64,000 bases of DNA, taken from positions 32,001 to 96,000 of the forward strand of contig JAWOEX010000028.1 in assembly GCA_046482545.1 (NCBI GenBank), in the 5' to 3' direction. The notes beneath the pieces were generated by a model, which worked only from the letters and a program-made list of their open reading frames with translations, made no database searches and had not been told where the DNA came from. Below, piece by piece: positions 1,341 through 12,262 of the stretch. This stretch comes from Candidatus Thorarchaeota archaeon. Its GTDB lineage: Archaea > Asgardarchaeota > Thorarchaeia > Thorarchaeales > Thorarchaeaceae. Position numbers and translations under genes: made by a program. Positions within the stretch are counted from its first letter, which is position 1; each line of letters starts with the position of its first letter.

Positions 1341-2039
1341 TTGAAAAATCGACAAGCGATGTTTCCTCACTCAAGCTTCTTAAATTATGAATTGAACTAC
1401 TCCCACGTGACCTACGGAGGCAGAAAGTTGTTCCGATCAGATCATGAGACGATACATGTCAAGTGGCCCCGCAGATGTATAGCTTGCGGAAAGCGGATGG
1501 AAGAAGGCTCTGAACGATTCAGCAAAACCTACGACCGTATATGGATTGACAGAGACAATGAATCCTTCTCTGATGGAAAGCGGGTCATGGTCGAGCAGCA
1601 CAAGAAAATTCGAGCTACACTCTACATCTGCGAAGAGTGTAAAATCGACGCTCAAGAGAAAGTATCTGCTATAGGCGCTAAGTATGAAAATCGAGAAGAA
1701 ACTATGTGTAAGGTGTCTTTCAGCTTCTTTCTCTTTACAATTGGTTTGTTCGCCTTTCAACTGATGTTTCCAATTCTTCCTTTGCGTACATTTGGGATGG
1801 CTGCCTCAATATTGACCATTGCCACAATTGTAATGGGTGCTATCTGGACCAGAATAGCAAAGCGAGCAGAGCGGGTCAAGATTCTTCGAGAGAAACCGCC
1901 AGCTGGATTTTTGGGAATTGAAGTAGATGACCAAGGAAAGCTATGCTTTGTATTTAGCAATTCCAAATATGCTAAAGAGTTTAAGAAGATAAATCCATCA
2001 CTGAATACACAATCAGAACTGAATCCTTTTGCGCTCTGA
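1341..2039 (+). CDS. Membrane protein with N-terminal Zn-binding CxxC...CxxC domain and two TM helices
   Basis: CIAC and CEEC pairs plus two hydrophobic segments; start codon uncertain. Confidence 0.65.
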   Translation: MKNRQAMFPHSSFLNYELNYSHVTYGGRKLFRSDHETIHVKWPRRCIACGKRMEEGSERFSKTYDRIWIDRDNESFSDGKRVMVEQHKKIRATLYICEECKIDAQEKVSAIGAKYENREETMCKVSFSFFLFTIGLFAFQLMFPILPLRTFGMAASILTIATIVMGAIWTRIAKRAERVKILREKPPAGFLGIEVDDQGKLCFVFSNSKYAKEFKKINPSLNTQSELNPFAL

Positions 2040-2340
2040 ATAGAAAAAAGAGAAACAGAGATGAGGGCATCTATTCGCCCTTGAGCATCTCTGGGGGATT
2101 ATGCTTGGCGTGTTCTTGCATTTGAGCCTCTGAATTGAATCTGTCACCGCAGGCCTCGAGACCCTCGATACGGCTGGCCGAATTTGAGCGGTTGGAAGGG
2201 ATATCTCATCCCCTATGAGGGATTCTGTTAGCATAGAACATCTAACTAAACTCATCAAGAAATTGGTTAAAGAATCAGAAAGGTTAAGAGAAGCATACTG
2301 ACTCCCTTTCAAGAGCCCATACTCCTCTAGAGGGATAGAA

Positions 2341-11269: not shown

Positions 11270-11449
11270 GTGTCCGAAATTCCCATGCCCGATGACTACG
11301 TTCCAACTGAAGGAGAGGAAGATGAAGAAGAAGGATTCTGTGATCGTTGCTGCGAGTGTTGGTGCCAGCTCATTGGAATAATCATTCTTGTTGCTTTGTT
11401 CTTAGTGATTATGTCTGCGCTTTTCGGTCGAGGTATGTTTGGGTTTTGA
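11270..11449 (+). CDS. 59-aa Cys-rich single-TM microprotein (not in the ORF track)
   Basis: GTG start after AGGTGG. Translates as MSEIPMPDDYVPTEGEEDEEEGFCDRCCECWCQLIGIIILVALFLVIMSALFGRGMFGF*. Confidence 0.7.
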   Translation: MSEIPMPDDYVPTEGEEDEEEGFCDRCCECWCQLIGIIILVALFLVIMSALFGRGMFGF

Positions 11450-11686
11450 TTAATCAGTCATTTTACATCGCATTAGAAGAATTGACGTAGCTCTTTATCT
11501 TAACAAGGTCTCGAAGAAAAGCACTTAGGAGTACGGGTCGAGACATTTCTAGTGGGTACAGGTGGAGCAATCTTGATGTATCTCATTTCCGTATACACTG
11601 GTGCATCGCCGTAGAAGCGATATACACTCAAGAGGTGCAAGTTTTACAAAAATCCTAAAAAATCTTGGTGCAGAAGTGTAGAAGAT

Positions 11687-12161
11687 CTGTAAGATTTCCT
11701 GCAAGCCCGTTTCGGGCAACAAACGAGAGGAGTTTATCAGGTCTAGTACGGAACCCGGGTCCAGTAGGACTAGGCAAGTGGGCTAGTGCTGTGCACGACG
11801 CACGCGGCCGAAGGCTGTGAGGAAGACCCCGTCTTCTAAGCAGAAGTCCTCACTCTCCAAACAAAGGTCCTCATCAGGCCCTGGAGAGTCCGCGGCTGTT
11901 CGCTTTGTCCAACTGGACCTGTCCAGCTTTGGTGACGAAGCCGGGCAGAGCGATAATAACCCCGCCGTGGCAAAAGCTGCGGGAACACTCGTTGCCCCCG
12001 GATGTGATGTATCCGGGTCAGGGCAGGAGACAGAAGCCGAGACCGCAAGAGGGACCGTGTCCTGATGATGGCGGCCAAAGTCTTTGCTTGGCCGGGGGTA
12101 GCGCTCCGGTATGGCGGCGACGCTGGGCAGGGGAAGGGTGGAACACAGGAGTCTCATGCAG
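11687..12161 (+). ncRNA. Candidate large structured non-coding RNA of unknown class (~475 nt)
   Basis: About 60% GC by manual count over 11761-12120, clearly above the flanks. No credible ORF. Terminal helix plus more than 10 internal helices, with G-U pairs favouring the + strand. Confidence 0.7.
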
Positions 12162-12262
12162 TTGCTAAAACTGTAAGAAACGGGTTATCAAGAGAGAGTT
12201 ACATATAGTGATGCTTTAATAATCTACTAGGGGACGCATATGCAATAGAATGAGGCCTTTTC

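Follow-up and report, generated by a model that had tools for sequence, protein, structure and literature searches.

In Asgard archaea, TnpB has been described in association with aCas1, a diverged Cas1, at the loci Cas1H-Asgard-1 and Cas1H-Asgard-2 (Altae-Tran 2023, PMC10691335, in the part of the source covered here). The omegaRNA (reRNA) that guides TnpB of the IS200/IS605 element ISDra2 has its pseudoknot at nucleotides -6 to -2 (PMC10097598). We analysed a window of 64,000 nucleotides of Thorarchaeota DNA, in which positions 11634-12187 are, on comparison with related copies, a non-autonomous, protein-free, guide-RNA-only copy (554 bases) of a Thorarchaeota transposon, laid out as a left end, its own TATA box, a TnpB omegaRNA scaffold of ~425 nt and a right end. 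The name aCas1 is said to come from Makarova 2020. That the locus is an orphan TnpB omegaRNA element of the aCas1 family is very likely, and we put the probability of the overall reading, a guide-RNA-only derivative of an aCas1/tnpB transposon together with the mechanism proposed for it below, at about 0.88.

The parent elements, in which a diverged Cas1 adjoins TnpB as it does elsewhere in Asgard archaea, share with the Cas1H-Asgard loci, as far as the source was covered, the Asgard host, the flanking repeats and a conserved GTTCACTCA downstream of tnpB with a variable stretch before the motif. This motif is kept in most relatives and in 11 of the 43 copies of the same genome (G000), and has been lost from the window copy. 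The published account considers, in the part covered, that the variable stretch may be the guide (PMC10691335), whereas in the present elements it supplies the terminal stem with its 5′ arm, which pairs with a leader RNA, and the guide would come after the terminal pseudoknot. In the main text of that paper, within the same limits, there is no mention of RNA structure, a 6-bp duplication, orphans with a promoter or a guide against the element's own promoter. Like the RNA of ISDra2, the present RNA overlaps the 3′ end of tnpB, stops at the right end, has a predicted guide in the flank and shows a pseudoknot at -6 to -2 and a T-rich TAM (TTGAT in ISDra2, TTMAT as inferred here); like omegaRNA-encoding PATEs, protein-free copies would be used in trans. 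The scaffold of ISDra2, however, has 231 nt (116-nt core) against ~425 nt here, and in place of the Y1 peel-and-paste ends of an IS200/IS605 PATE, which inserts 3′ of the TAM and makes no target duplication, we found a 6-bp target duplication and subterminal repeats, with the insertion site uncoupled from the TAM and a second, trans-pairing guide RNA. Casposons resemble the elements in a Cas1-fold protein, here a putative integrase, in their target duplication and, for some relatives, in a location at tRNA genes. In contrast to casposons, neither intact element has a PolB gene (Pfam on ORFs), the duplication is 6 bp rather than ~15 bp, the Cas1 match comprises the helical domain only and is fused to a Cas4-like nuclease, and TnpB and RNAs are carried along. 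Standalone repeats and mini-arrays (10.1101/2023.03.03.530964), the Cas9 tracr-L and TldR repressors also aim a short guide at the effector's own promoter, and repression without cutting is predicted for such autoregulatory crRNA-like RNAs as for the present leader; unlike them, the system described here has no CRISPR array, a nuclease with catalytic residues and a transposon omegaRNA as scaffold. The RNA class is already known, and the aCas1-TnpB association has been published in outline; of the two possibilities that the first-pass annotation had offered for the RNA, an undescribed ncRNA or a strongly divergent known class, the former falls and the latter stands, the class being TnpB omegaRNA. 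The leader guide, the inferred TAM, the 6-bp duplication and the orphan promoter were not found in the literature searched (the supplement of PMC10691335 and Makarova 2020 lie outside it), in which no paper dealt with both TnpB and Thorarchaeota.

The copy is bounded by the 6-mer TCAAGA (11628-11633 and 12188-12193; family consensus TCNNGA), assigned as a target duplication from the identical end 6-mers and the spacing in a congener, G077. The left end (11634-11701, plus strand), 81-84% identical to the left ends of 8.2-8.3-kb elements, contains subterminal TTTTACA/TCTTACA-type repeats in both orientations (11641-48, 11677-83 and 11687-94), which probably serve as transposase binding sites. 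A BRE-like purine-rich run and a TATA-like box, TTTATCAG (family consensus TTTATTAG), lie at 11726-11740 (plus) and occur in protein-free copies only. The omegaRNA scaffold extends over 11763-12188 (plus), its 5′ end at ~11763 being placed from the TATA distance and a conservation boundary at 11767. Overlapping it, a remnant frame of the TnpB C-terminal tail (amino acids 475-559) spans 11808-12062 (plus; tblastn 86% amino-acid identity, E 7e-33); the earlier statement that the region has no credible ORF is right in that there is no gene, and missed this read-through remnant. A loop-loop pseudoknot (11872-76/12005-09, together 11872-12009, plus) is 94% paired, and a terminal pseudoknot (11957-12187, plus) joins TAACC at 11957-61 to GGTTA at 12183-87, the position of the guide-adjacent pseudoknot of TnpB and Cas12. 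The right end (12151-12187, plus) is a terminal hairpin with a subterminal repeat, CTGTAAGAAA, at 12171-80; its loop is short, without the anti-repeat-like GTTCACTC loop of the long elements. Because, as in ISDra2, a single base separates the terminal pseudoknot from the variable flank, a flank-derived guide is predicted in host DNA at 12189-12204 (plus), its length of ~16 nt borrowed from ISDra2; leader guides, too, begin 1 nt past the pseudoknot strand.

In all 40 tnpB loci examined, the shared sequence starts just past RuvC-III, at the equivalent of 11767, and the RNA, running from within the 3′ end of tnpB as far as the right end of the transposon, is identified by this placement as an omegaRNA scaffold, a 3′ overlap of tnpB. 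As expected of an omegaRNA, it also has a conserved structure in which a pseudoknot comes immediately ahead of a variable guide position. To score covariation, we counted for each helix the branches of the tree on which both partners of a pair had changed in a compensatory way, in 89 sequences with a mean identity of 66%. The counts were 30 for 11921-27/11940-46, 25 for 12081-88/12126-33, 23 for 11907-10/11915-18, 20 for 11821-25/11833-37, 18 for 12051-55/12059-63, 14 each for 11900-04/11949-53 and 12113-16/12121-24, 13 each for 11852-58/11883-89 and 12043-46/12071-74, 10 for 11992-96/12022-26, 9 for 11977-81/12144-48 and 6 for either pseudoknot. Summarized as twelve helices, the two pseudoknots included, with 6-30 compensatory changes, they compare with a null maximum of 2 in 15 simulated alignments, this null being our own simulation and not R-scape. 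Single-pair G-tests were only marginal against the tree null, and with APC the misaligned 5′ region dominated. In the long elements the RNA overlaps coding sequence, which adds conservation beyond that of RNA structure; the window copy has some mismatched pairs.

The first-pass annotation had placed a structured plus-strand RNA in a GC-rich island at 11687-12161; the island is real (GC 0.596 versus 0.454 for the genome), and covariation bears out a structured plus-strand RNA of an Asgard archaeon with pseudoknots, yet the conserved RNA begins at ~11763-67 and runs to 12188. All nine proposed internal helices can pair in the window copy. As to their conservation, 11852/11889, the outer 11900-04/11949-53 and both enclosed hairpins covary, but 11803-19, the inner 11900-53, 12072-94 and 12099-125 are unsupported in the covariation alignment, and the helix at 11965-82 competes with the better-conserved 11890-96/11964-70. 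The proposed terminal helix exists as 4 stacked pairs plus ~5 more in ungapped register, with bulges needed, and it pairs a left-end repeat with a right-end DNA repeat. Hairpins from ~11508, offered as a possible extension of the RNA, fall within what is left of the 3′ end of a VIT1-family gene. Folding energy is modestly better than that of shuffled sequences (z -2.2 on the plus and -1.1 on the minus strand; -1.8 for the true core). In agreement with the earlier claim that the RNA lacks the marks of familiar classes, it had no Rfam match at either threshold, be it to RNase P, SRP, OLE, GOLLD, ROOL, HEARO or group I/II introns (best E 4.2), and the genome encodes its RNase P RNA (C34, 156.5 bits) and SRP RNA (C28, 103.5 bits) at other sites. 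The idea of a divergent or permuted RNase P, with 11703-13 pairing with 12177-86, was rejected: the stretch is unconserved between copies, and RNase P is encoded elsewhere.

Long copies of the element have the order left end, giant ORF (1410-1963 amino acids, antisense), tnpB (544-623 amino acids), RNA and right end, and the ORFs of the intact ones are aCas1, TnpB and one small ORF without a Pfam match. TnpB matches PF07282 (and NCBIfam guided_TnpB only below its cut-off); D242, E403 and D437 never vary, and a glycine replaces the RuvC-II glutamate. Such a rearranged RuvC site is regarded as probably active in the part of PMC10691335 covered here, and the parent TnpB, which is of the rearranged type, is predicted to be active. 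The giant protein belongs to no family in Pfam, NCBIfam or PDB sequence searches, and a Pfam Cas1 search of the genome, giant protein included, gave no match. The top 12 structural matches to a predicted model of its N-terminus (VIA search) are all Cas1 or casposase, covering the helical domain (Z 9.1-12.9, rmsd 3.5-4.5, 154-197 residues) against 6.7 for the next, unrelated match; Foldseek returned Cas1 only at E 0.002-0.08. E79, H174, D181 and D184 are nearly invariant and may be equivalent to the Cas1 E/H/D triad, and residues 259-520 of the predicted model resemble Cas4/AddB/RecB nucleases (Z about 6). Divergent from tnpB, aCas1 is present in 30 of the 40 tnpB loci and missing in 10, some of which end at contig ends. 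The giant protein occurs in 48 of 85 genomes of the family, against 3 of 314 other genomes of the phylum searched. The relatives of the element are labelled Ca. Thorarchaeota. From this context we infer that aCas1 is the transposase.

Some further features of the long elements were observed. In the giant protein at L042:2289-6521 and its homologues (P0001-P0039), the Cas1-fold domain and the Cas4/RecB-like nuclease are followed by what by eye resembles a degenerate P-loop ATPase region and then by ~550 unassigned residues. Several long elements (L044, L055, L056, L058 and L060) adjoin tRNA 3′ ends in the manner of casposons, and a number of these seem to be without the RNA's own terminal pseudoknot while keeping the leader. 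A second TnpB clade (L046, L088, L089, L091 and L092) has a fixed palindromic TGCATGCA after the pseudoknot and no variable flank; a TAM-adjacent target of this sequence was not found.

Within its own genome the element occurs in dozens of copies in unrelated contexts, and the region has matches in 52 of the 85 genomes of the family; the locus is thus a multicopy mobile element and not a single-copy, housekeeping ncRNA that stands alone in the cell. Copies with paired left and right ends comprise 35 of 545-603 nt, seven of 152-426 nt and a decayed one of 1.8 kb, and two more are intact, with 8.2-8.3 kb and perfect duplications. An identical 6-mer stands at both ends of 18 of 45 elements, where shuffling gives 2.4 (maximum 8) and where the left offset, picked from four options, introduces a mild bias. 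In G077 the orthologous site is empty, and once the element and one 6-mer are taken out, the upstream stop codon and the moxR promoter block stand 35 nt apart, as they do in that genome; on these two grounds, the element is placed as having landed between a VIT1-family gene remnant and the moxR promoter, outside that operon. At the moxR locus of G078, whose upstream side cannot be aligned, blastn found no part of the element. The comparison thus shows a recent insertion with a 6-bp TCNNGA duplication. The choice of target does not appear RNA-guided, as no TAM at a fixed distance and no match to a parent guide was found near insertions. A retroelement with 5′ truncations was rejected, since many partial copies are linked to tnpB and full copies have defined left ends. 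Viral contigs contained no exact match to the 5′ motif of the RNA. Next to the insertion, window positions 11270-11614 contain the frame of a 59-amino-acid acidic, cysteine-rich membrane peptide that is conserved in G077 and, after it, no more than the last ~35 codons of a VIT1-family gene, which G077 has intact (232 amino acids).

Between left end and RNA, protein-free copies have in common a segment with the purine run and TATA-like box, which is found neither in the left ends of long elements nor in tnpB coding DNA. In 26 of 32 copies, 34 nt separate the best TATA-like box from the RNA start motif downstream of it, and the mean matrix score is 2.7 versus -4.4 for random DNA (a sigma-70 promoter scan was of no use, the host being an archaeon). 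Orphans of other genera have different boxes 29-36 nt before the RNA; unlike boxes kept at a similar distance suggest repeated selection for expression.

In long elements a TATA promoter lies ~95-125 nt upstream of tnpB, and a leader of ~75 nt comes after it. The leader contains a GAGTGAACTCAACTG-like stretch complementary to the terminal arm and the GTTCACTC loop of the omegaRNA, with duplex energies of -20.1 kcal/mol for the element's own loop, -17.3 for those of other loci and -7.6 after shuffling. Its 3′ end (GGTCA, GGTTA or GGTCG) covaries with the omegaRNA pseudoknot strand (TGACC, TAACC or CGACC), fully paired in 31 of 35 cases. In 33 of 39 loci, the 10-15 nt that follow reproduce exactly a stretch of the locus's own promoter, which lies 90-99 nt upstream, compared with 4.9% for the promoters of other loci; this target sits behind TT[A/C]AT (TTMAT). 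Among 50 held-out loci examined, 41 could be parsed; 33 of these had an own-promoter guide, 26 with TTMAT and no match longer than 15. As the loci are related and not independent, permutation p-values overstate the support. In the genome of the window, the sole TAM-adjacent target of at least 11 nt for each leader guide is its own promoter. TTMAT is inferred as the TAM from the promoter, and constraints on promoters could account for part of the motif; since purines occupy the TT positions in orphan promoters, however, TTMAT is not a general promoter feature. The leader is probably a crRNA-like guide for which the omegaRNA acts as tracrRNA, its short guide making TnpB bind and repress its own promoter. 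Were the guide no more than a tandem duplication of the promoter, or a DNA repeat bound by a protein, the two covarying RNA pairings would be left unexplained, and both readings are therefore less likely. Leaders lie at L042 ~2034-2160 and L043 ~2004-2135 (both minus), at C20, C28 and C23 of the own genome and at most relatives' tnpB loci, and C38:60479-60550 (minus) is a stand-alone leader-like unit with a different 3′ sequence, for which a TAM-adjacent target was not found in the genome. The leader-pairing loop is missing in 32 of the 43 copies in the genome, the window copy included.

We propose the following mechanism. Insertion would likely be performed in trans by the 1400-1960-amino-acid protein. 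Its Cas4/RecB-like nuclease may release the ends of the element, which its Cas1-fold domain would then attach to a palindromic target with a stagger. In long elements, there is good reason to expect that the same RNA would be a tracrRNA-like scaffold for the crRNA-like leader, the 10-15-nt guide directing TnpB to bind, and not cut, its own promoter behind TTMAT, a negative feedback. With somewhat less assurance, the orphan RNA would be transcribed from the TATA box at 11733 and loaded in trans by TnpB, with the flank past the terminal pseudoknot as guide. What it does there is tentative, our best guess being that by occupying TnpB with a harmless guide it might relieve autorepression or supply a mobilising RNP, with no homing and no service to the host. 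This role was reached by elimination, because the empty site has no TAM and the leader-pairing loop is lost.

The orphan RNA might instead act in classical TnpB homing, its flank guide leading to cleavage of the empty allele and recombination restoring the element. Homing of this kind is well established for TnpB in IS200/IS605 elements, among them PATEs that carry only an omegaRNA, used in trans (10.1101/2023.03.14.532601), and the guide position, the catalytic residues and the dedicated promoter are all compatible with it. TTMA, however, precedes the first T of the duplication in 0 of 29 empty sites (TTMAT in 1 of 29 if the guide starts one base earlier), the empty site of the window copy reads ACACT, there is no TAM peak within 130 nt of insertion sites, and some tRNA-targeted long elements appear to lack the RNA's own pseudoknot end while the leader is kept. 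The flank guides had no TAM-adjacent targets beyond chance in the genome, and none in their own loci. Since insertion sites have no TTMAT and TAMs are not enriched nearby, homing, which would call for a relaxed TAM, is unlikely, a judgement that hinges on the inferred TAM.

Rather less probable is that the orphan RNA is a neutral passenger beside the right end, only the DNA ends mattering for mobility. Shorter copies (152-426 nt) without most of the RNA do occur, and the mismatched pairs and modest folding z-scores of the window copy would suit a passenger. Against this, RNA-containing copies dominate and carry all 16 perfect duplications of short elements, the minis being decayed, and the unlike promoters at similar distance in other genera suggest selection for expression. 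It is about as doubtful, and slightly more so, that another enzyme encoded elsewhere (a tyrosine or serine recombinase, Y1 or DDE transposase) moves the elements, with the giant protein as cargo: the 6-bp core and subterminal repeats resemble tyrosine-recombinase sites too, and one long copy has an AbiEii toxin gene in place of aCas1, but the only two-ended intact long elements hold aCas1, TnpB and the small Pfam-less ORF, and no other transposase-like ORF is evident behind unpaired left ends. At L045:6510-8329, an AbiEii-family toxin gene and a 280-amino-acid partner take the place of aCas1 upstream of a tnpB copy. That the RNA is a host ncRNA or a regulatory leader which works together with the MoxR-vWA operon, beside which the first-pass annotation had placed it, would fit the element's position 70 nt upstream of moxR in the same orientation and a predicted guide covering DNA just upstream of the moxR TATA box (12215-22), but is already largely refuted and very improbable, as the dozens of copies stand in unrelated contexts, the alignable congener G077 has no element upstream of moxR and keeps its own TATA box there, and the G078 locus has no blastn match.

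As a guide-RNA-only derivative of an aCas1/tnpB transposon, the locus and its relatives bear on several questions. The copies are sequence evidence of recent mobility of a polymerase-free Cas1-type transposon with defined ends and a 6-bp target, and the transposase activity of aCas1 is therefore directly testable. From the leader one can read off a natural TAM (TTMAT) and the point at which the guide starts, for a TnpB that is uncharacterised, has a rearranged catalytic site and goes with an unusually large scaffold. A split of the omegaRNA into tracrRNA and crRNA has been proposed at the origin of type V CRISPR systems (PMC10097598); the pairing of leader and omegaRNA resembles such a split, here beside a Cas1/Cas4-like protein, and suggests a role for TnpB other than homing. 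We give even odds to a broader idea, by which aCas1-TnpB transposons would be an intermediate stage, found in nature, between the single omegaRNA and the split tracrRNA/crRNA system. One large RNA would then be both a self-contained guide and the tracrRNA of a promoter-repressing short-guide RNA, beside a Cas1-Cas4-like transposase, and promoter-bearing RNA-only copies would be parasites that soak up TnpB or supply a mobility RNP, and would not home.

The arrangement of copies and their ends varies. At C20:181317-182444 of the own genome, two elements stand head to head with one TCAAGA in common, and at C9:359467-359777 one element is apparently nested within another. In L074 and L077, an inverted copy of the 13-14 nt past the RNA end is found at the opposite side of the element, which suggests that they form a subfamily whose outer terminal repeats differ. 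The right ends at C10:14855, C10:30876 and C20:117704 have an extra TA ahead of the duplicated 6-mer, hinting at imprecise end processing.
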